DNA from: a phage
Assembly (NCBI GenBank): GCA_025812035.1
Contig: GCA_025812035.1_4719.1
DNA: 64,000 nt
Strand: one strand, 5' to 3'
This document shows positions 11,845 through 23,158 of the stretch, one piece after another. Position 1 is the stretch's first letter; the number at the start of each line of letters is the position of its first letter. Position numbers and translations under genes: made by a program. The notes under the pieces were generated by a model. It worked only from the letters and a program-made list of their open reading frames with translations, did not search any database and had not been told where the DNA came from.

Positions 11845-14800
11845 TTATCTTACGTTAGTACTATTCTGCTGTTCGCTGAACCAACCATAAACCTTGAGAT
11901 CGGTACCGTATTTCAGTGCGATATACGCATTCAGTGCTGCACAGAACAAAGACGCGAATGCCCATACCAGCGAAGGATCGACATCTTCCGTTACCGCCAC
12001 CAGGGTAGCCTCTGGTTCCCATGACGGAGAACTGTCTGTAAACGTCGTGAACCATGCCCGACGTTGTTCTTCAGTGGTAAAGTCGCTATGTGGCTCCAAC
12101 GCTTCTTTTGCCAAACGTCGATATTCGGTCATATGAATCGCGAGAGCCGCTGAGCTATCATATTTGCATTCATAGTTCGGATCAACAGCACAACAGAGTT
12201 CTGCGGAATCCAACAAAGCAAGCGCTTGTTTGATGCTGTCGGTGGTGCCTGCACTATAAAGCTCGATAGACTGCGAAAGCTTTTCACAGAACGCATTTAA
12301 CGCGGCAGGATCGGATACCTGAAGGTCAAGACCTAATGTCCACGGATAGTTACTGAACACACCCGTAAACTGCGGCATAACACCCAACAGATGTTGTCCG
12401 ATTACAGCGCGGTTATAAGTAGCCCGATTATAGACTTGAAACGCGGCCTCCAATGCTTGGTTATAATGACGACGAAGTTCGTCACGCGTGTTGCGGAATC
12501 TGTTCGCCGCGAGACTCGTAGCTGCGACGCTACAAACATCGTAACCAGTGGACGAGAGCACAACGTCGTTAAGATCGAACGCTTCCTGTTTCAACGATCC
12601 ATTAACAGCTACCGCTTCGCTGTTCGCTTTATCGACAACCGTACTCAACGCGTTGATATAACGTTTAGCGCGGACTTCCAACCATTGTGCAATACCGAGA
12701 ATATCTACCGCGGCTTTAGCAAGATCGCGTGCGTTCACGATTTCGTTCTTCAAGGCACCCAACCCTTTATTCTCAGGCGAAGAGGCTTGTTGACGAATCA
12801 TGCTGTTTAACATGGTAAGCAGATTATCCAACTCATGTCCGCTGACCTTGTTACGCGCATCGGTAATCGGCCCTTGCAGGAATTTACGGCAACCATCGTT
12901 GTATCGAATCAGTTTATCCACATCGATCGACTCGTTAGCGGATTCCTTGAACTGATTCTTCAATTCTTCACGGTAATCATGAATTTCACTTGCAAGATTG
13001 TCGACAGTGATACCATCATGTTCGAGAAGAACTTTATTGAAGTTACCTTTCTCGAATGCAAGAGCAAGACCTTCGCGAATCTTAGCGAGTTTATCCTGAT
13101 CGAGTTCACGACCGTTTGATAACTCTTTCACTTCCGAGCTGATTAATGCTGCAACGTTACCCAGATTGTCGGTAACCCCTTTGAATGTCCCCGACCAAAT
13201 CGTTCCCGCTTCAGCATATTTCGCAATGGTCTGAATACCGACGGTATGCAATGACGCTAAACGTTTCTTCGTGCCTTCGGTAAGCAGTGCGTCTTTAGCT
13301 CGCGTAAGCTGGCTGTTATTAGCTTCCGCTTGCTGAATCGCTGCTTTCGCATTTCCATTACGCCAGCTCTTAACCAACCAATCAACCAGACGTTTTAGGA
13401 TGTTGACGGTATATTCCATCGTCCGCCGTAACGTCTCCCACGCGCTTTCAGCGGTATAAATGCCGTACCCTTCCATCGTCAACGCTTTCAAGCTTGTTTG
13501 ACGTGCCAGCCATTCTACCGTTGCAGAGCAAACGTTTACTAATGCTTCCAGGTAGTTGTAATAGACGTCTGTTGCCGACGTTTCGTTGAACTTTGAATGC
13601 AGATAGAACTGATCGTAAAGTTCGTCGTCATCACCGAAGGCATCATAGTTCCACAGTTCTGTATCACAACCTGTGCCGCAGAAGACGTCAGCTGTCGTAA
13701 ACTCTTTAAGCGCTTTAGCGGCGTCATTTGTCAGGAATTTACCTGTTTCAACTACATCGTCGACATTAAGTTTGGGGAGTTCGTCGGTGACCGGCTCTTC
13801 CAACATCAGCATATTGAAGAATGTGCTATACTTGTATCCGAGCCATTTTGGATAGCTGCTTTCAGGGATCGTAGACAGCGGCTTGATTTTCTTGGCTTCA
13901 GCCAACGTGTCTTTTGCGACCTGATATTGGTTTTCCCCAGCCTTGACGCGACGTAATGCTTTTTCTTCCAACTGCTTGAGTTTGGTATGTCGTGCTTGTG
14001 CTGGAGCTTCAACAAGTTTTTGTACGGACCGCATTGCTGATATCGCTTCTTTTAATACGATCATCGGCATACGAACTTTACCGTCGTCGAAACTAAGAGC
14101 GCGAGCGACACGTTTACTTACGACAGGCTTATCATGGATATTTCGTTCCACCCACGATTTGTTTGCGTAAGTTTGAGCGATCTGCTGTTGGATATTTTCA
14201 AGGTATTTCCAGCCGTTGGAAGCTTTGTTATCCAGAAGCGGATTCGGTCCCTTCTTATCGAAAAGTTTCAGAATCGGACCAAAGAAACCTTCCTGTACGA
14301 GTTCGATACGCGTGTATCCGTCAGCCGCTTCGATTTCTTCTTGGGTTTTGTCCCAGAGCTGTTCACTACGGACAGCAGTAGCTGTTTCAGATACCGACAT
14401 AACAAGCTCGGCAACAACTTCAGCGCAGGTCAGTACGGTACGCACGCATTGCAGTAGCATACGCTGGTAAACGATACGTGCGTTTTGTAGACGTGCGATA
14501 ACCGCTAAATAACCGATATTGTCAAGACGTTCGTCGGCTTGAGCAGAGTCAACACGTTCTATCAGTTGTTTCACCAACGCGGCTGTTTCCGGATAATCGT
14601 TCACGACGTCACGCATAATTCGTGATGCGAAAACCGCGGTACCTAAAACGTTAAGAAGTGTTTTACCGTCCCATTCTTTTGGTGTCGCTACCGATTCGGT
14701 AGGGATGAGATTTCCCGCTTGGTCGAAGTACGGCATAAGGACATTGATATCCGTAGACGGTACTGCGGTGACTGCGTTGTACTCTTCATCCGCACCATCG

Positions 14801-15450
14801 TCGCCGGATGGTTGTATAGCGAGTGCCTGTTCAAGGATTTTGCGGTCAACAGCATAAAGCGCTGATAGGGCCTGTGTTACCGCAACCAGATCAACAACCG
14901 GTGACCAGAGCTGTGCGAGTTTATCCTTGTATTTCTGTACAGCAATAACGAGGTCTTCTTTTACGTCAGGATGATTGATTAAACCACCCAACGCTTCATG
15001 GACTGCAGAAAAACGTTCAGAATGCGCTTGAGTTAATGCGACAAAATCGTCAACGTACGATGCATTTTCTTCAAGGCGTGCAAGTTCCTGCTCCAGGAGA
15101 TCTTTTACTTGCGTGGCGGATGCGTTTCTCAACTGTTCCCCGATAATCGCGATGGCTTTATCGACAACACGACAAGCTTCATTGAACCCGGTCGTTGATG
15201 GTAACTCGGTCCATAATGCCAGCGGCTTACCTTCCATTGCGTCAGGAAGGGAGTACGACAGCATTGTTAGTTGCTGACGCGATACCTGTTTATCACGATG
15301 TAGCGTTTCTTTCAACGCCAGAAGCTCATCAAGACCCACACTGCTGGGGATCGTGGGATGTGATACAGCGTTGATGTTTTCTGCTAATGACTCAAGAACC
15401 AATAAACCATTTTCAGCGGTAGAGAAACCTGCTTTAAGGTATTTGTTCAT
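11845..15450 (-). CDS. Hypothetical giant protein, 1201 aa (possible virion/ejection protein)
   Basis: Long ORF with GGAG SD; helical Ala/Leu/Glu/Lys-rich; contains IELVQEGF resembling the paralog-module motif. Confidence 0.65.
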   Translation of the reverse strand: MNKYLKAGFSTAENGLLVLESLAENINAVSHPTIPSSVGLDELLALKETLHRDKQVSRQQLTMLSYSLPDAMEGKPLALWTELPSTTGFNEACRVVDKAIAIIGEQLRNASATQVKDLLEQELARLEENASYVDDFVALTQAHSERFSAVHEALGGLINHPDVKEDLVIAVQKYKDKLAQLWSPVVDLVAVTQALSALYAVDRKILEQALAIQPSGDDGADEEYNAVTAVPSTDINVLMPYFDQAGNLIPTESVATPKEWDGKTLLNVLGTAVFASRIMRDVVNDYPETAALVKQLIERVDSAQADERLDNIGYLAVIARLQNARIVYQRMLLQCVRTVLTCAEVVAELVMSVSETATAVRSEQLWDKTQEEIEAADGYTRIELVQEGFFGPILKLFDKKGPNPLLDNKASNGWKYLENIQQQIAQTYANKSWVERNIHDKPVVSKRVARALSFDDGKVRMPMIVLKEAISAMRSVQKLVEAPAQARHTKLKQLEEKALRRVKAGENQYQVAKDTLAEAKKIKPLSTIPESSYPKWLGYKYSTFFNMLMLEEPVTDELPKLNVDDVVETGKFLTNDAAKALKEFTTADVFCGTGCDTELWNYDAFGDDDELYDQFYLHSKFNETSATDVYYNYLEALVNVCSATVEWLARQTSLKALTMEGYGIYTAESAWETLRRTMEYTVNILKRLVDWLVKSWRNGNAKAAIQQAEANNSQLTRAKDALLTEGTKKRLASLHTVGIQTIAKYAEAGTIWSGTFKGVTDNLGNVAALISSEVKELSNGRELDQDKLAKIREGLALAFEKGNFNKVLLEHDGITVDNLASEIHDYREELKNQFKESANESIDVDKLIRYNDGCRKFLQGPITDARNKVSGHELDNLLTMLNSMIRQQASSPENKGLGALKNEIVNARDLAKAAVDILGIAQWLEVRAKRYINALSTVVDKANSEAVAVNGSLKQEAFDLNDVVLSSTGYDVCSVAATSLAANRFRNTRDELRRHYNQALEAAFQVYNRATYNRAVIGQHLLGVMPQFTGVFSNYPWTLGLDLQVSDPAALNAFCEKLSQSIELYSAGTTDSIKQALALLDSAELCCAVDPNYECKYDSSAALAIHMTEYRRLAKEALEPHSDFTTEEQRRAWFTTFTDSSPSWEPEATLVAVTEDVDPSLVWAFASLFCAALNAYIALKYGTDLKVYGWFSEQQNSTNVR

Positions 15451-15465
15451 AAAACACTCCGTTGA

Positions 15466-15496
15466 CCTAGGTGGAGGTTATTGGCCTCCACCTAGG
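15466..15496 (-). terminator. Intergenic hairpin with perfect 12-bp stem
   Basis: CCTAGGTGGAGG-TTATTGG-CCTCCACCTAGG between the 934-aa and 1201-aa genes. Confidence 0.55.
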
Positions 15497-15531
15497 GTTG
15501 AACAACACGTACGGTTATACGGTACGCACGA

Positions 15532-18336
15532 TTACGCTAATTTACCGAAACCGGCTTTCTGTAGTTTCTCGTTGATCAGTTTTGCTTCAGCGAAAACATA
15601 ATCACGATATGCGGTAACTAACCCATCCACCCGTGAACGCAAGGCTTCTTCGAAGCTATACCACGCAGCGATTTCACGAATCTGAGCGTTGATATAATCA
15701 ACGGTTGAGCGAAGCTCGGTTGCATTTTCTTGCGGGATGGCTTTCACCTGGCGAGCAACGTCATTTAAACGACGGAACTGTGTTTCGATTTCTTTAAACT
15801 TACTGTCAGCAAGTTTGCTGAATTCGTCACCGGAACGAGTAAATAACAGATAGCTGTTGCCATCAAGTGCGGTCGCTAACTGCTGAAGTACATTGGTGTC
15901 CGGATACACAGGAGTACCGCTTTGCAGTACTTTCTCACCGAATTCCGCGAAGTCCTTCGGCGGTAAGTGTGCAGACGTTGTCAATTCGTTGAAACGGAAA
16001 GTCAGCGAACTATCATACAACATCCGGTACGCTTCCATACCCTGTTTCATGGTACCAGCCAGGTTAGCCAGACGCGGAGCAATTTCACCCTCTTTAGCGC
16101 GCTTCTGGTCTTCTAACGCCCCTTCCAGTTCTTTACACTGGTCGTTCAGATACACGATACGATCGGGACGCAGACGACGCATCTCACGAAGAATAGTATC
16201 CAGCTTACCTTCCTGGAAATAACCTAGCGTTAAAGACGTACACGCTTGTTGAAGACGATCGAACACTGGTAAGGTTACCATCTCTTTACGGATACCATCA
16301 ACAATCGCAGAAACAGCCGAAAGTTTCTGTTCTGTGGTTAATGGAACGTCAGAGACCGACTTGCTGGGCGCACCAACAACGTTACGCATTGCGTCGGTAT
16401 CCTCGGTTTTATCAACCTCTTTACGAACATTCTCGTCGGGAACATAAACGTTCGCATTACGTTTTGCCTGTTTGATGGCATCGCTGGCCGCTTTTTCGGT
16501 GGCCGCTACGCTATCGGCACGTTTCTTCAAGAGTTCAATAATCCAAAGCAACAGACGACGAATCGCAGTGTAGGCTGTCGTGATGATGACGCCGATAACA
16601 GCCATCTTCATGATACCGAACGATTCCATGGTCGGCTCTAACGCCTGGTCAGGCATATACCGTTCACGCAGCTCCAGATAGATCTGCTCATCCGGTTTGC
16701 TGATCTCACCACGATGCGAAGTCCGATAGATGGCTTCGTCAATCTCAACAAGATCTTTACGTGCTTGACGGTCTGTTTCGGTCAAATAAGCGCAGCCGGA
16801 TACGTCGTCTTCAAAACTTTCGAACTTAAAGAAATCGACAACCATCTTGGCAAGCGCCTCTTTCTTAGCAGGATCGAGCGTCTTCGCATCTTCTTTTTGC
16901 TTATCCATTTTTTCCTTGAATTTCTCTTTGTAGTCATTCAAGGGTTTTACCGCTCTTGCCCTCAACGCGTTATAGATAGTTTTCCAACTTTCTTCGCGTT
17001 CTAAGATAAGGAAGTAGTTTTTGAGTTCGAAAGCACGGTAACGTGCAACGAGCTGTTCTACCTGAGCATGAGCGAGTTGTACATCCATCAACCAGCGGGA
17101 CAATGCTGAAACCAAACGACTATAAGCAAGCAGCGTTTGATATGTCAGCTTCATGTGTTTCTCGTAGAGTTCAATATCTCCGCCCCGGATATCAGCTGTC
17201 GGGTTCATCTCCTTAGTTGCTTTGAAGACTTGTTCAGCTTCATTCAACACTTGCTCGAACTTGACTTCATTGAACGCGTTGAATGGTTCGGCCAGTTCAT
17301 CCATCTGTTCGTGAAGCTCGCGAACCCAAGCTTCTTTGTGATTACGAATGACCGCATCAGCGTGGAGCACGGTTTGATGTTTCTGTACCCATTCTTCGAC
17401 GATATCTGCCGCTGCAACAACACCCATGTTGTCGGAAATCAACGGAATAACATTGGAGAGCATACCAGCACACGCTGGTGTTTTCCAATGATCGTTTAAC
17501 GCGTTACGGAACGCAATAATGTCCGTCATAGACGTAGTGATATCGAGGAACGTGTTACCGTTACGACTCATGCTTGCGATATTTGCAGCAAACGTCTTTT
17601 GCTGATCTACAACGAATGGAATCAATAGCATCAACCATTCAGCAACGCATTTTGCTTTGTCTTTCAGGTTTTTGTCGGCTATTTCTTTGAGATTGATTGC
17701 GCTACCATAACCCGCAAGTTCGTTATATACGTCGTTCAAGGTCATCTGCTTATCCAGCATTTCTCTGAAACGCGGATAATCTTCCCCTAACGCATCGATG
17801 ACATCTTGGATAACATCGTCAGTTGTGGCGATAAATTTCTTCGCGTCGACTTTAGATTTCCAGACGTGTCGTACCGCTTTCTTGATTCCTTCAAAGATAA
17901 ACGCCCAGATACGCTTGATGAGTTCCCAGACTTTCTTCGCACCATCGACAAACAGTTTAGAGACTTTGGCAACGAATCCTTCCTGCACCAACTCAACGCC
18001 GTTACGTGATGGAATTTCGGTGAAGAAAGCATCCGGCAGTTGTTTCGGGAACGCATCACCAAGACGCATACGCAATTCGGGTACATCGGCACGAGAAATA
18101 CCACGCGTCGTTAGCTGCTCGTGAAGACGAACGTTTTCTTCACCAGAGGCTACGAATTCGTTAACGTCAAATGAAACCAGTTCTTGATCTTCGGTGGTAA
18201 CGACGCTTGAACCATCACTGGTTTGGATGTCTTCGTCAGGGAATGCCATGAGCATACCGTGACGCATTTCAACCACCCCGTAATCGGTTGCTAAACCGAA
18301 TTCGTTGTGATCGGGGGTAATAACTGGGATACTCAT
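15532..18336 (-). CDS. Hypothetical giant protein, 934 aa with paralog module and a hydrophobic segment
   Basis: AAGGAGAG SD; N-terminal region ISRADVPELRMRLGDAF ... GVELVQEGFVAKVSKLF...KKVWELIKRIWAFIF matches the module of the ~430-aa paralogs; hydrophobic stretch MAVIGVIITTAYTAIRRLLLWII. Confidence 0.65.
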   Translation of the reverse strand: MSIPVITPDHNEFGLATDYGVVEMRHGMLMAFPDEDIQTSDGSSVVTTEDQELVSFDVNEFVASGEENVRLHEQLTTRGISRADVPELRMRLGDAFPKQLPDAFFTEIPSRNGVELVQEGFVAKVSKLFVDGAKKVWELIKRIWAFIFEGIKKAVRHVWKSKVDAKKFIATTDDVIQDVIDALGEDYPRFREMLDKQMTLNDVYNELAGYGSAINLKEIADKNLKDKAKCVAEWLMLLIPFVVDQQKTFAANIASMSRNGNTFLDITTSMTDIIAFRNALNDHWKTPACAGMLSNVIPLISDNMGVVAAADIVEEWVQKHQTVLHADAVIRNHKEAWVRELHEQMDELAEPFNAFNEVKFEQVLNEAEQVFKATKEMNPTADIRGGDIELYEKHMKLTYQTLLAYSRLVSALSRWLMDVQLAHAQVEQLVARYRAFELKNYFLILEREESWKTIYNALRARAVKPLNDYKEKFKEKMDKQKEDAKTLDPAKKEALAKMVVDFFKFESFEDDVSGCAYLTETDRQARKDLVEIDEAIYRTSHRGEISKPDEQIYLELRERYMPDQALEPTMESFGIMKMAVIGVIITTAYTAIRRLLLWIIELLKKRADSVAATEKAASDAIKQAKRNANVYVPDENVRKEVDKTEDTDAMRNVVGAPSKSVSDVPLTTEQKLSAVSAIVDGIRKEMVTLPVFDRLQQACTSLTLGYFQEGKLDTILREMRRLRPDRIVYLNDQCKELEGALEDQKRAKEGEIAPRLANLAGTMKQGMEAYRMLYDSSLTFRFNELTTSAHLPPKDFAEFGEKVLQSGTPVYPDTNVLQQLATALDGNSYLLFTRSGDEFSKLADSKFKEIETQFRRLNDVARQVKAIPQENATELRSTVDYINAQIREIAAWYSFEEALRSRVDGLVTAYRDYVFAEAKLINEKLQKAGFGKLA

Positions 18337-18773
18337 GCATTCTCTCCTTGCAGTGCGTTAGCGAAAGCCGTTGCGAGTTGCGCAACCAGCTTAGGATCAA
18401 CACCTTCGATAACGTCAGGCAGCCCTGCGGTTTCTTGGTCACGAACAGCGGAGGCTAATAACAGCATGGTTTCAGGTGCGGTTGGCTCATGCACCATGCG
18501 GTAACGCAGGCACCAGAAGTAGCGGGCAACGTCTAACGCATCAGTCAGCCCAATAACCAGTACCTTGTTCAGCTTATCCAACCCGTCACGGATTTTAGGG
18601 AGATGTTCACGAACGAAGATGCTATCCGCAGTCAGATCTTCTTTTTCAGCGAATACTGGCATGCTGTAACCGGCGATGTAACCTGCAGCAATACTTAATG
18701 CGCGGGTCTGTTGTTCGGCTGGGAAGTCACGTACCAGGTCTTTCAGCTGAACGGCGAAATCAGAAATATTCAT
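18333..18773 (-). CDS. Hypothetical protein, 146 aa
   Basis: ORF with AAAGGA SD; ATGA overlap with the downstream 934-aa gene. Confidence 0.55.
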   Translation of the reverse strand: MNISDFAVQLKDLVRDFPAEQQTRALSIAAGYIAGYSMPVFAEKEDLTADSIFVREHLPKIRDGLDKLNKVLVIGLTDALDVARYFWCLRYRMVHEPTAPETMLLLASAVRDQETAGLPDVIEGVDPKLVAQLATAFANALQGENA

Positions 18774-18806
18774 GTTAAATTCCTTTATAGTAGAAGGTGA
18801 ATTAGG

Positions 18807-20117
18807 TTACGCGACGACAGAGTCGAGTTTCGCTGACACTTTGAACAGATCGTTGTTCATTGTGGAAGAAAGGACTTGTTGAATTTCTTCCTGTTTAACG
18901 GCTTTACGAACCCCAGGGCGAAGGATAAGCGTAACCATCTGTGAGAAGGTACGGTTATTGTTCATCACACTCAGTGTTTCATCGATTGTTTTGATGGTAT
19001 CCAACGTCATGGAACGAACGTCGCTTGGGACATCACGATCTTTCAGACGTATGATTAAATCTTGTTTGATTTTACGGAATCGTTCCATGTCGTTATCGTA
19101 AATGCTGTATGTTGGATCTAACCAAACAGAAAGCGCGGTTACGGCTACAACAACGAACACACCGATAGCGCCAACAGAAGCTAAACCTATCGCCATCATA
19201 GAGGCTATAGTAGCATCCATGATGAAGGAGAGCCAGAACATCGTTTTAGACTTCATGGAGTTGGTACCATAAAGCCGAAACATTTTAGCAAGCCCGCTAA
19301 CAAGATACTCCCCACCACCATGACGCGTAGCGAACTGATCAGCCATGAATTCGGAAGCAACGTCAGTGTATCGTCCAGCATTGTTTACGTTTCTTAACTG
19401 CATTGCTTTGTTAGAAACATAAACCGTATACCAGACACTACCGTCGTCTGAGTCGCTGATTTTGTTTACATCAACGTTAGTATCCAGCGTTTTGTTTAAC
19501 GCTTTAGCCAGTTCGATACGTTTTACTTTATCGGTTGTTCCCAACAGTTCACGCTGTACGGTCATGATCGAGGCTTCGACACGAACCGTTTCCGATAATG
19601 TTTCAAGGAAAGTAAATGCGTGACCGATTTCATGCAGCATTATGGCTGCTTTTTCTTCCGGAAGAAAGGGTTCTGTCGCTGTTAGCAGTTCATACGTGAT
19701 GGCAGAACGAATCTTCAACTCTTCAAAGATCCCGTAAACACGACCTTTTTCTAAATCGACATAACCGACAGGCGTATCTTTAATCTTCTTAAGGAGCGCA
19801 ATACCATCGACACCACGCATCCATAATCGATGATAGTCTGCCATGATTGTGTTGTTTGTCGAAATATCCGGTGGGTATACGTAGGCATTCATCTGACCCA
19901 TTTTCACGTCAACCGAAAATTCGATGTTCAACCCAGTATAGCGTTTAACCATCTCGGTTAAATGGCCGTCCTTGAAAACGTTTAAAACATCTTTTTTATC
20001 CAGTCCCTGTTTGCTTCTGAAGAACTCGGTCATCTCCTTGAACAAAGAGCCATCTTGAAAATTGATGGCCTCCATCTTTAATTCATCATGACCATACACA
20101 CGTTGTAATAATGACAT
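18807..20117 (-). CDS. Putative M48-like zinc metallopeptidase with transmembrane segments, 436 aa
   Basis: HEIGH (HExxH) zinc-binding motif, then ~80 aa later EFMAD (ExxAD-type third ligand); two hydrophobic helices (FWLSFIMDATIASMMAIGLA, IGVFVVVAVTALSVWL). Confidence 0.5.
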   Translation of the reverse strand: MSLLQRVYGHDELKMEAINFQDGSLFKEMTEFFRSKQGLDKKDVLNVFKDGHLTEMVKRYTGLNIEFSVDVKMGQMNAYVYPPDISTNNTIMADYHRLWMRGVDGIALLKKIKDTPVGYVDLEKGRVYGIFEELKIRSAITYELLTATEPFLPEEKAAIMLHEIGHAFTFLETLSETVRVEASIMTVQRELLGTTDKVKRIELAKALNKTLDTNVDVNKISDSDDGSVWYTVYVSNKAMQLRNVNNAGRYTDVASEFMADQFATRHGGGEYLVSGLAKMFRLYGTNSMKSKTMFWLSFIMDATIASMMAIGLASVGAIGVFVVVAVTALSVWLDPTYSIYDNDMERFRKIKQDLIIRLKDRDVPSDVRSMTLDTIKTIDETLSVMNNNRTFSQMVTLILRPGVRKAVKQEEIQQVLSSTMNNDLFKVSAKLDSVVA

Positions 20118-20129
20118 TGTACACTCTCT

Positions 20130-20145
20130 AAATTTACGTAAATTT
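20130..20145. promoter_or_regulatory. Perfect 16-bp palindrome AAATTTACGTAAATTT in the divergent intergenic region
   Basis: About 12 nt upstream of the M48-peptidase gene start, within the 220-bp region separating it from the polymerase-like gene; candidate operator. Confidence 0.35.
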
Positions 20146-20338
20146 AAGGGCTAACGGATCGGCTGGCCGCACCAATCACAATGTGTTCGTTGCTATGCAA
20201 CGGCATTCATAGAAATACCTTTTGACGGTAACATCACCTTTCACACCCCAAGCAATAAGAGTGGTCGGTTAAAAACAACAGAACGTGAGGATGATATAGA
20301 AATTCACCTTTTAACACCTATTACGAGTTTATCAAGCC

Positions 20339-22090
20339 ATGAGCGAACAAGAACGAAAACCTAAGAAGAAACTGCTCGGTATTCAATGTCGACACATCAG
20401 TTATAACGAAGCGAACGATGGCAGTAAGAACGATCTCATGATTGCAAAAGAGATCATGTTCTTTGATGATAATACGCAGGCAACGAACCTTCGATTCTTC
20501 GAGAATTACAAACGTCCATTTTGGGTGACGGTAGAGAGTAAACGTAAGAACAAATATAAAAAGGAAAGCGAGAAGCTCTCGCATGTACGTCGCTATGATG
20601 TCCGTCAAAGTGAACTGGTCGATAAAATCAGTTCGGTGCTTTATAAAAGACGTGCTGATGATAACACCCGCTTACAACAGCTCGCACGGAGTCCATACCT
20701 CTATGGAACGGACGTTAGCGCTAGCTGTTATTTAAAAACCCAATACAATACAAAATGGCCGGAATACGCCGATAAATTACCTGCCACCATCGCATGTTTC
20801 GATATCGAAACCGACGTTGTTCATGGGCACGGTAAGATCGTTTGTATGTCTATTACAATGGGCTACAATGCGATACTTTGCTATACCAAGGACTTCGTTG
20901 GTCATATTCCGAATGCGATCGAGAAAACCCACGAGAAGATTCGATATTACCTGGCCGAACGTCTGAACACCAAAGAGGATCCTCACGCGTTCGAAAAATA
21001 TCATTACGATGTTCGAATCGTAGAAAGCCCAGCACAAGCGGTCATCCAATGCATGCAGAAGGTTCACGAATGGCAGCCGGATTATCTCCTTGGCTGGAAT
21101 ATCGCGTTCGATATTCCACGTATGCTCCAGGCGCTGAACGAGGAAGGGTATCGTCCCGAGGATGTTTTCTCCGATCCTCGCGTACCCCCTAAGTATCGCA
21201 TTGCTCGCTGGGTACCACCGAAGACCGACAAGGTATCTGCTTCAGGTCGTAAAACCAACCTTACCCTTGAGCAGACCTGGCCGATGTTTTATACGATGGC
21301 TACATACCAGGTTATGGATGCGATGTGTGGTTATAAGTTCGTTCGTTTAGGAAGACCGGATGAAGGACGTTATTCACTCGATGCGGTGTTAGAGCGTAAT
21401 AAATGTCATACGAAACTAAAAGCGATTCCTGGTACAGAAGGGTTCACGGAGCTCGCCTGGCACGAAGAGATGCAAACGAACCATCAAATCGACTACGGCG
21501 TATATAACCTTTGGGATAACCAAGGTATTGAGGCATTGGACCAGAAAACAAAAGACTATTCGATGACCATCCCTATTCGTTTAGCGGCGTCGGATTTGAA
21601 AGATTTCAGTTCCAACCCTAAACGTATCTGTGATAAACTTTTCTTCGTTTATCTTAACCGTGGGGAAGTCATGGGATGCACCGCCGACGACATGACCCAG
21701 GAAGAAGATAAATGGGTTATCTCACGAGCAGGACATATCGTCACATTACCATGCGATCTCATGGCAGACAACGGCATACATCTCTTCTGGGATATGCCGA
21801 ACTTGAGAAGTTATATCCGTCTATTCGTTGCAGACCTTGACATAAGCAGTTCATACCCGAATGGGCAGATCCTGCTCAATCTATCCAGGGCGTGTGTTTT
21901 TCGTGAGCTCTCACGTATTGAGGGCGTCTCTGACTATCAATTCAGGAAGCTAGGTATCAACTTTATTACCGGAGGTAAAACGAACGCGGTAGACTTCTGT
22001 AGAATCGTTTATAAAGCACCATCGATGTTCGAACTCTTAGAACATTTCGATGCGACGCGTCCGAAAGAGGAAGCGCGAACCATCGAATGA
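20339..22090 (+). CDS. Family-B DNA polymerase-like protein: 3'-5' exonuclease domain plus motif-A-like segment, 583 aa (possible N-terminal part of a split polymerase)
   Basis: Exo I CFDIETD, Exo II GWNIAFDIPRM, Exo III YGVYNLWDNQ with family-B-like spacing; DLDISSSYPN resembles motif A (DxxSLYPS); no motif B/C before the stop; terminator hairpin follows. Confidence 0.5.
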   Translation: MSEQERKPKKKLLGIQCRHISYNEANDGSKNDLMIAKEIMFFDDNTQATNLRFFENYKRPFWVTVESKRKNKYKKESEKLSHVRRYDVRQSELVDKISSVLYKRRADDNTRLQQLARSPYLYGTDVSASCYLKTQYNTKWPEYADKLPATIACFDIETDVVHGHGKIVCMSITMGYNAILCYTKDFVGHIPNAIEKTHEKIRYYLAERLNTKEDPHAFEKYHYDVRIVESPAQAVIQCMQKVHEWQPDYLLGWNIAFDIPRMLQALNEEGYRPEDVFSDPRVPPKYRIARWVPPKTDKVSASGRKTNLTLEQTWPMFYTMATYQVMDAMCGYKFVRLGRPDEGRYSLDAVLERNKCHTKLKAIPGTEGFTELAWHEEMQTNHQIDYGVYNLWDNQGIEALDQKTKDYSMTIPIRLAASDLKDFSSNPKRICDKLFFVYLNRGEVMGCTADDMTQEEDKWVISRAGHIVTLPCDLMADNGIHLFWDMPNLRSYIRLFVADLDISSSYPNGQILLNLSRACVFRELSRIEGVSDYQFRKLGINFITGGKTNAVDFCRIVYKAPSMFELLEHFDATRPKEEARTIE

Positions 22091-22138
22091 TTAAAGTATG
22101 TTGATCCTCGTTTAACAAAAAAGAAAACGCATGCGAAG

Positions 22139-22180
22139 CCCCTCCCCCTGGCGGAAGCCGGAGGGAGGGGTGGAGGTTTT
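22139..22180. terminator. Hairpin plus T-run between convergent polymerase-like gene and paralog array
   Basis: C-rich/G-rich stem (CCCCTCCCCCTGGC / GCCGGAGGGAGGGG) followed by TGGAGGTTTT on the plus strand. Confidence 0.6.
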
Positions 22181-22188
22181 ATGTGTTT

Positions 22189-22638
22189 TTAATTATTATT
22201 GGTGGGGTTATCGTCCGGTTTATATTCAATGCCGTAGGCGACGTAACGGTCTGTTGTATGGACGACAAGCGAGATAGGGAAATCATAATGCATAGTTTTG
22301 TCTCGAACGAGCTGAGTAAAGAGATCCATATAACGTATTAAGTCTTCACTGGTGTAATCAGAAGGGAAGAAGACATCGATGGTTATTGAATCTTCATAGA
22401 GGCGTACGACCAACTTATCCAGAAGGTCGGCATATTGGTTAGCCGGGGTGACGTCCATCTGACAGATGCCACGATCTCCTTCGTCTCGCGATACCCACAT
22501 CGTGGTATCCTGTAATGAGGTTTCAAGGATCTCGAAAATACATTTTGCTGTAAGTCTTAGTTTATTTGTTACGTCATGGTTAGGTGAATAATGGTCACGG
22601 ATGTTTTTCACTGCGTCTTTGATAGAGAAAGTCATCAT
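22189..22638 (-). CDS. Small paralog family protein 1 of 8, 149 aa (function unknown)
   Basis: Shares N-terminal helix motif (AKCIFEILETSLQDTTMW) and acidic C-terminal tail (YGIEYKPDDNPT) with seven neighbours. Confidence 0.6.
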   Translation of the reverse strand: MMTFSIKDAVKNIRDHYSPNHDVTNKLRLTAKCIFEILETSLQDTTMWVSRDEGDRGICQMDVTPANQYADLLDKLVVRLYEDSITIDVFFPSDYTSEDLIRYMDLFTQLVRDKTMHYDFPISLVVHTTDRYVAYGIEYKPDDNPTNNN

Positions 22639-22648
22639 TGATGCTCCT

Positions 22649-23158
22649 TCAAATGAAATTAATACGTGCGGCTGTCGAAACGAGTTCGCTTGTAAAGCAA
22701 TGCTTACCGTCGGGATTTACCGTGTGGGTAAGTTTACAAACCTTAGCGGCAGGGTTAGCGCCGATGACAAGGACGGTCGTCATATCGAACAGTTCCACAC
22801 GTTGAAGAAATGCCGTATCGGCTACCTTCTGTAAACCGGTTGCTTCAAAATCGATGTGGTCGTTAAGAGGCACCAATTGGATTTCAATACGTTCTTTGAA
22901 AAGTTTAAACGTTACTGAAAACCGATGAGGTTCGGCATTAAGCCATAAAGGTCCGCGTTGGAAGTGCTGATATGCTTCATTCGCGGTGTTCTCGAAAACC
23001 CAGCAGTCGTGGACAAGAGAAGCCTCTTGTAACGATGATTCCAGGTAGTCAAATACCTTGTTTATCGTTTTCTCAAGCATAGGTGCTAGTGAACCAGGGT
23101 ATCCAGCAAATGCTGCTTCGGCAATCGATTTTATTGATACGATGTTGTTCTGACTCAT
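22649..23158 (-). CDS. Small paralog family protein 2 of 8, ~169 aa
   Basis: ORF track 22649..23185; start moved to MSQNN after AAGGAA that overlaps the upstream stop; N-terminal motif INKVFDYLESSLQEASLVHDCW. Confidence 0.55.
   Translation of the reverse strand: MSQNNIVSIKSIAEAAFAGYPGSLAPMLEKTINKVFDYLESSLQEASLVHDCWVFENTANEAYQHFQRGPLWLNAEPHRFSVTFKLFKERIEIQLVPLNDHIDFEATGLQKVADTAFLQRVELFDMTTVLVIGANPAAKVCKLTHTVNPDGKHCFTSELVSTAARINFI

Follow-up and report, generated by a model that had tools for sequence, protein, structure and literature searches.

Characterised metallopeptidases of the M48 family act at membranes, on membrane-proximal substrates. Among jumbo phages of group 1, a family of uncharacterised zincin-like metallopeptidases was flagged by Iyer et al. 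in 2021, with AMR59696.1 as the example (PMC7824862). The protein considered here is encoded in a stretch of phage DNA of 64,000 nucleotides (contig GCA_025812035.1_4719.1 of assembly GCA_025812035.1), hereafter the window, whose numbering is used for all positions, while protein residues are counted from Met1. It is an orthologue in this conserved family, already flagged in silico, so that its enzymatic nature has been predicted since 2021: AMR59696.1 is gp047 of phage SEGD1, is encoded at the same locus, and aligns over its full length with the window protein (E = 1e-27, 25% identity). The protein is also a conserved head protein throughout the phiKZ/Goslar/SPN3US group, and it combines a predicted M48-like active site with a hydrophobic hairpin of the kind found in membranes.

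The window is about 91% identical to the E. coli jumbo phage vB_EcoM_Goslar (megablast of positions 15000-23000), and the protein is 90.8% identical over its full length to Goslar_00067, or gp67, by tblastn; the tblastn search with the protein gave matches in 223 phage records. By syntenic annotation its orthologues are Goslar gp67, phiKZ gp84, EL gp52, 201phi2-1 gp145, SPN3US gp45 and SEGD1 gp047. Since the window belongs to a relative of Goslar, its protein is to be read within the biology of the phiKZ-like phages. A literature search on phiKZ gp84, gp084 or PHIKZ084 found no functional study, and the family is not discussed in the reviews and primary papers found on jumbo phages, on the early phage infection (EPI) vesicle or on virion structure.

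The family is large. A word-indexed search retrieved 72 homologues, and an exhaustive profile search retrieved 4038 cluster representatives at E <= 0.001, with 1804 at E <= 1e-30; the best 150 representatives from this profile search are nearly all 410-455 aa long and matched over their full length. Some metagenomic members (P0174, P0188, P0198 and P0207) are 825-1237 aa long and carry the protease module fused to extra N- or C-terminal sequence; the fusion partners might give hints to a substrate or a location. The locus is arranged in the order divergent upstream DNA polymerase, protease, a gene of ~145 aa, a variable gene and a convergent gene of ~950 aa, and this order is kept in the most distant homologue examined. 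The original prediction, made from the sequence alone, had regarded a membrane metalloprotease as unusual in a phage structural operon; this did not hold, in view of its conservation across the group as a head protein and a synteny that extends even to the most distant member.

Relation to M48 metallopeptidases

From its sequence, the window protein is a divergent M48-like gluzincin that stands outside every characterised M48 subfamily, and peptidase activity is predicted for it. The two motifs that had been named in the original prediction, HEIGH followed by EFMAD, are both present, at a spacing of 90-94 residues rather than the ~80 residues given there. Across an alignment of 43 family members, the most distant at 21% identity, the columns without any variation are M1, E16, G129, H162, E163, G165, H166, E256, D260, G267, R346 and L424; the initiating methionine is thus among them. 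HExxH is found in all 206 full-length family representatives, and so is an E...D element 74-99 residues past it (median 95). Motifs that are invariant and keep a fixed spacing across the family rule out chance, and the retention of the general-base glutamate argues for a working active site.

Assignment to M48 in particular draws on several comparisons. Matches to Pfam Peptidase_M48 (PF01435; gluzincins of MEROPS clan MA) at E <= 1 were obtained for 25 of the 43 members, far more than for any other family; SprT, Zincin_1, M50 and reprolysin, the other zincin families that appeared, matched sporadically, in 1-3 of the 43 members each, and were set aside. One member, P0064, which is related to the window protein with a phmmer E of 1.5e-24, passes the M48 cutoff (24.6 vs 20.3 bits, profile positions 38-171). 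M48 membership of the window protein rests on transitive homology, because its own score lies under the Pfam threshold and that of P0064 above it. When the family profile was compared with the sequences in the PDB, human ZMPSTE24 was matched at E = 0.001 with both motif elements aligned; the M48 signature in the profile, "rssEqlADqFAtRhGaGraLvtgLdKln", aligns to ZMPSTE24 residues 412-442 in a 31-residue alignment that includes EFMAD. In hhalign comparisons with single sequences, E. coli HtpX aligned to the family over the strand and the AAxxxHExxH helix only (E = 3.8e-5), and E. coli BepA more weakly, over the HExxH element only. Searches with the single window protein were less informative: NCBIfam gave nothing relevant and phmmer against the PDB sequences gave no match. 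Single-sequence searches, whether of Pfam, NCBIfam or the PDB, are too insensitive for this family, and the family alignment was required.

The predicted structure may be consistent with this assignment. In an AlphaFold2 (AF2) model, the catalytic domain contains a beta-sheet with strands at residues 64-70, 78-80, 118-121, 126-129 and 135-141, together with an active-site helix (153-193), a variable helical insert (197-245) and a "glutamate helix" (252-283); strand 135-141 is followed by helix 153-193, which carries HEIGH. In the viral structure library BFVD, the full-length matches are "virion structural proteins" of jumbo phages, while more distant relatives are annotated as peptidase, M48 or BepA-like, two of them being the "zincin protease" proteins of Bacillus phage AR9. 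The M48-like zinc metallopeptidase proposed in the original prediction is supported by motif conservation, by Pfam and profile matches and, more tentatively, by fold evidence.

Packaging, propeptide and hydrophobic hairpin

The virion data used here are published data for orthologues (Goslar gp67 being 91% identical) and not for the window phage itself. In Goslar virions, gp067 was detected by mass spectrometry (MS) with 47% coverage and 19 peptides, at an estimated 32-48-76 copies per virion; it is listed in Table S4 of the preprint on the electron cryo-microscopy (cryoEM) structure of the virion and absent from its text (10.64898/2026.04.21.720040). The peptides detected include the active-site peptide AAIMLHEIGHAFTFLETLSETVR, the C-terminal-domain peptide AVKQEEIQQVLSSTMNSDLFK and a semi-tryptic peptide, AIKFQDGSLFKEMTEFFR, which begins right after E16 (10.64898/2026.04.21.720040, Table S4). 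MS likewise underlies the annotation of 201phi2-1 gp145 as a virion protein. In SPN3US, gp45 belongs to the head and is among the nine proteins cut by the prohead protease gp245; its propeptide is unusually short, and was first reported as 20 residues (PMC5694885, PMC10052503).

The cleavage site of SPN3US gp45 aligns with the invariant Glu16 of the window protein, for which a short N-terminal propeptide is predicted (Table 1). Near the N-terminus, an x-E-[A/S]-hydrophobic motif occurs in 176 of the 206 representatives, and 166 of these 176 have S, A, T or G three positions before the cleavage, in agreement with the S/A/G-x-E specificity of the serine protease that processes the head proteins of phiKZ. 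At this position the window protein (K-M-E) and Goslar (T-M-E) are atypical; the Goslar peptide still starts after the glutamate. Residues 1-15 have a predicted local distance difference test (pLDDT) score below 50 in the AF2 model. Removal of a propeptide by the prohead protease implies that the protein enters the prohead before maturation. Peptides from both sides of the hairpin are found in virions, so that the mature virion holds residues 17-436, the hairpin included.

The original prediction had also noted two hydrophobic helices after the catalytic region, and this was borne out. The hydrophobic stretch is 45 residues long and its Kyte-Doolittle mean over 19 residues peaks at 2.52; in the AF2 model it forms two helices, 291-313 and 317-332; and a hydrophobic segment downstream of the E...D element is present in 204 of the 206 full-length representatives. 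Judged by eye, the hairpin is the part most diverged from Goslar gp67, with FIMDATIASMMAIGLASVGAIGVFVVVAVTALSV in place of FIKDAAVTILIAISFTSVNILGMAIFVAAMALAV, the remainder being ~91% identical. Selection appears to keep the hydrophobicity of the hairpin rather than its sequence, and the hairpin is a candidate membrane-inserting element. It is followed by a C-terminal domain that is modelled by AF2 as helices 343-359, 365-383, 391-420 and 424-435, and in which YD (340-341), R346, K359 and NxLF (422-425) are conserved.

The importance of the protein to the phage is suggested by its conservation across the group, by its conserved membrane-type hairpin and by transposon-insertion sequencing (TnSeq) in phiKZ. 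In the TnSeq data, PHIKZ084 has 0 insertions after trimming in 1242 bp, the genome mean being one site per 42 bp, and its raw counts are at noise level, similar to those of the essential gp87. Essentiality of orf84 in phiKZ is thereby suggested, not proven.

Possible roles of a packaged, predicted protease

Three roles had been put forward as possibilities in the original prediction: processing of the co-transcribed giant proteins, action during DNA ejection, and cleavage of a host envelope or defence protein. In the published SPN3US data there is no sign that head proteins are cut by anything other than the prohead serine protease. The preferred reading, which is held tentatively, is that the protein could well be an M48-like protease that is stored in the capsid, ejected with the DNA, and active at the inner membrane or at an early-infection vesicle on an early substrate. 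The hydropathy and length of the hydrophobic segment fit a two-helix hairpin, and the mature protein resides in a lipid-free capsid. Storage followed by ejection is favoured because the hairpin has no obvious use in such a capsid and because the characterised M48 enzymes are membrane-acting. The protease would be held in the head in a latent or substrate-free state, possibly at or near the five-fold vertex complex, whose genes follow the protease gene. [quoted passage not shown] The protease would then leave the capsid along with the DNA and other ejected proteins, and its hairpin would insert into the host inner membrane or into an EPI vesicle derived from it. Early in infection it would cleave a membrane-proximal substrate, which may come from the host envelope or be a phage protein ejected alongside it.

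What gives the protein its appeal is that a predicted protease active site and a membrane-type hairpin are packaged together in a capsid, in phages for which the early membrane biology is a live question. Besides the prohead serine protease, it is the only predicted protease encountered among the head proteins of the nucleus-forming jumbo phages. Two questions in the field, both concerning membrane-active phage proteins, are touched: how the EPI vesicle is formed and equipped, and what tethers proheads to the inner membrane and later frees them from it. It is conceivable, if unlikely, that the protein is a virion-delivered M48 protease that inserts into membranes and works at the host inner membrane during the first minutes of infection, for example by cleaving host membrane proteins or activating co-ejected phage proteins so that the EPI vesicle forms, stays sealed or hands the genome to the phage nucleus. 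If true, no phage enzyme of this membrane organelle would have been identified earlier, and the protein would offer a way into the question of how the vesicle arises. Separately, "prohead-like" spherical particles have been described near the inner membrane 5-10 min after infection by SPN3US (PMC7411985), which is very early for proheads; on a reading of the text only, these may in hindsight be early-infection vesicles.

A number of points count against a stored and ejected M48-like protease. The window protein itself reaches 11.4 bits (E = 0.28) against Pfam Peptidase_M48, below the gathering threshold of 20.3 bits, and a Foldseek search of its model against the PDB gave weak matches (E = 0.24, TM 0.22). 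Its overall architecture, in which the hairpin comes after the catalytic domain and an extra C-terminal domain is present, differs from that of every characterised M48 enzyme. Zinc binding, proteolysis, membrane insertion and ejection are predicted or inferred for all family members. The protein is modelled in no solved virion structure, neither the family profile nor phmmer having found a PDB chain that matches the protease family. In phiKZ, gp89 and gp162 remain in the capsid after ejection, and vertex-bound proteins would be expected to stay in the capsid too. Finally, orf85-86 of phiKZ are also free of TnSeq insertions and yet can be deleted.

Three rival accounts differ in how they treat these data. 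The most radical, that the motifs are coincidental and the protein is unrelated to metallopeptidases, could appeal to the non-significant single-sequence match to Pfam and to the failure of phmmer to find a match among the PDB sequences. It is scarcely credible: both motifs are invariant with a fixed spacing across the family, one member lies above the Pfam threshold, and the profile matches ZMPSTE24 at both motifs, so that it is effectively refuted. An improbable alternative is that the protein is mainly structural, a component of the capsid interior (such as a portion of the vertex complex or of the internal protein mass that has escaped modelling) that was derived from a protease and kept its metal site for folding or stability. 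Its ~48 copies are of the same order as the vertex proteins gp65 and gp42, which are modelled at 55 (their own MS estimates being 76-79); its gene adjoins the vertex-complex genes in all lineages examined; and its AF2 model is rich in long helices, while unassigned helical density adjoins gp65 at the vertices. The authors of the Goslar preprint, however, likened this density to the PF12699 fold (10.64898/2026.04.21.720040) and judged it PF12699-like, not a zincin. Moreover, Glu163, the three predicted ligands and Asp260 are strictly conserved in >200 representatives at about 20-25% identity, which is the pattern of an active enzyme, whereas pseudo-enzymes usually lose the catalytic glutamate.

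The remaining account, the main rival, which is possible but doubtful, is that the protein is a second protease of head maturation or release. It would be built into a membrane-sited prohead, where the hairpin would aid anchoring, be activated by removal of its propeptide, and then help to free or mature the head by cutting a tether to the membrane, a protein of the core or the scaffold. Iyer et al. (2021) in essence suggested as much when they proposed extra cleavage reactions during maturation (PMC7824862). The proheads of SPN3US assemble at the inner membrane and, when gp245 is missing, remain on it (PMC7411985), and this retention implies that release needs proteolysis; the SPN3US orthologue is itself a substrate of gp245, which fits activation of a zymogen, and the proximity of the gene to those of the vertex complex fits as well. 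Against this account, gp245 is credited with the 14 cleavage sites reported in nine mature head proteins of SPN3US, head processing in phiKZ is attributed to the serine protease, and SPN3US proheads lacking gp245 show no proteolysis at all (PMC7411985). In addition, the hairpin and both of its flanking domains are retained in mature Goslar virions, unlike the usual assembly-only factor, and a hairpin that sits in the cell membrane while the soluble domains on either side are enclosed in a closed shell would be topologically awkward.

Gene neighbourhood and comparison with known systems

The features of the locus are collected in Table 1. The coding sequence matches PHROG 2767 over the full length of the 436-aa protein (E = 1e-81). 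It is the first of four co-directional genes, for proteins of 436, 146, 934 and 1201 aa, which are separated by gaps of 33, -4 and 81 nucleotides. A terminator scan found no convincing minus-strand terminator-like site in the intergenic spaces of this run. In a scan for sigma-70 promoters and terminators the counts were at or below those expected from shuffled sequence, a result of little weight since these phages use their own RNA polymerases. The description of the gene as the head of a large-protein operon is a fair one, given four genes in the same direction with short gaps and no internal terminator-like site. Upstream of the run, AAAGGT(GA)ATTTCTAT occurs twice; these are the only two matches in the window, against 0 expected, and a pair of copies also lies upstream of Goslar gp67. 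The pair may be a promoter or other regulatory element for the gene run.

Table 1. Coordinates of the protease gene, its predicted parts and the adjacent features in the window
Feature	Position	Strand	Remarks
Protease coding sequence	18807..20117	(-)	436 aa + stop, ATG start; basis: open reading frame list, tblastn, syntenic annotations, PHROG 2767
Predicted N-terminal propeptide, residues 1-16, MSLLQRVYGHDELKME	20070..20117	(-)	Predicted cut by the prohead serine protease after invariant Glu16
Predicted zincin (M48-like) catalytic domain, residues 17-290	19248..20069	(-)	
HEIGH, residues 162-166	19620..19634	(-)	Predicted zinc ligands H162 and H166, predicted catalytic base E163; basis: translation, conservation
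EFMAD, residues 256-260	19338..19352	(-)	Predicted third zinc ligand E256 in M48-type ExxADxFA signature
Hydrophobic helical hairpin, residues 292-336, TMFWLSFIMDATIASMMAIGLASVGAIGVFVVVAVTALSVWLDPT	19110..19244	(-)	Basis: hydropathy, AF2, family conservation
C-terminal all-helical domain, residues 337-436	18810..19109	(-)	Basis: alignment, AF2 model
Downstream gene 1, 146 aa	18333..18773	(-)	Goslar gp66, phiKZ gp85; capsid inner vertex complex protein
Downstream gene 2, 934 aa	15532..18336	(-)	Goslar gp65, phiKZ gp86, SPN3US gp47; capsid inner vertex complex protein
Upstream intergenic region with two AAAGGT(GA)ATTTCTAT copies	20209..20311; copies 20209-20222 and 20296-20311	(-)	Candidate promoter or regulatory element

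The original prediction had spoken of giant proteins encoded by the operon. Large co-directional genes are indeed present, and the two downstream genes can now be named as components of the capsid inner vertex complex on the strength of PDB matches and the Goslar preprint. The 146-aa protein matches the "PVC protein gp66" in PDB chains 11fg/11mk over its full length (E = 1e-92), and a positional counterpart of its gene is present in distant loci; the 934-aa protein matches the "PVC protein gp65" of the same entries, also over its full length (E = 0). SPN3US gp47, the counterpart of the 934-aa protein, is essential, belongs to the head, has a predicted transmembrane helix and is inferred to be ejected. 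Paralogy of the protease with the vertex-complex proteins was considered and rejected, as neither sequence nor PDB matches support it. In the PDB composite entry 36za, the model of the 934-aa protein's counterpart starts only at residue 134 (801 residues, 55 chains), which fits the removal of a propeptide of ~133 residues (residues 1-133 in the window protein), as in SPN3US gp47, where it is 111 residues. The molecule names in this entry ("baseplate spokes gp032") do not agree with the sequences carried, which match gp65 and gp66.

Last in the run of four (11845-15450, minus strand) is a gene for a protein of 1201 aa, the counterpart of Goslar gp64 (930 aa). The C-terminal 543 aa are ~92% identical between the two and the N-terminal ~390 aa 47% identical, and the window protein has ~270 aa extra; this looks like the pattern of a head or host-interaction protein that evolves fast or is modular. 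In Goslar virions, gp64 is present at an estimated ~110 copies and is left unmodelled (10.64898/2026.04.21.720040). On the other side of the protease gene, the DNA polymerase gene (20339-22090, plus strand) is an uninterrupted 583-aa reading frame in the window. The counterpart region in Goslar is ~1.8 kb longer (L001 5502-7284), with a NUMOD1/HNH homing-endonuclease gene, gp69, beside the polymerase gene gp68; the junction lies near 21834-21854 in the window, whose phage is without this mobile insertion.

In comparison with what had been described before, the family of Iyer et al. (2021) and the window protein are the same family at the same genomic position, and the "zincin protease" proteins of AR9 are structural relatives. 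The mention in that study is a single sentence, which contains no M48 assignment, hairpin, propeptide site, copy number or vertex-complex neighbourhood.

The predicted likeness to M48 enzymes (Ste24/ZMPSTE24, HtpX, Oma1 and BepA/YcaL/LoiP) lies in a beta-strand followed by an xxEExxAAxxxHExGH active-site helix, in a third-ligand glutamate within an ExxADxFA...G....L..AL.KL signature, in a putative zincin core fold, and in the association with hydrophobic helices of the membrane type. The phage protein differs from them in the spacing from HExxH to the glutamate, which is ~95 residues and includes a helical insert, and in its extra C-terminal helical domain of 100 residues. Its hairpin follows the catalytic domain, whereas the transmembrane helices of HtpX precede and separate the motifs; in Ste24, seven transmembrane helices form a chamber, where the phage protein has a hairpin. 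Unlike the M48 enzymes, it is packaged in a capsid and loses an N-terminal propeptide to a serine protease of the phage.

In these last respects the protein resembles the ejection proteins SPN3US gp47 and phiKZ gp86, which are likewise internal to the head, processed by the prohead protease, predicted to contain a transmembrane segment, and encoded in the same gene cluster. These proteins lack an enzymatic motif, in contrast to the protease, for which ejection is proposed by inference. Goslar gp65, the counterpart of gp47 and gp86, has been seen bound at the inner capsid vertices.

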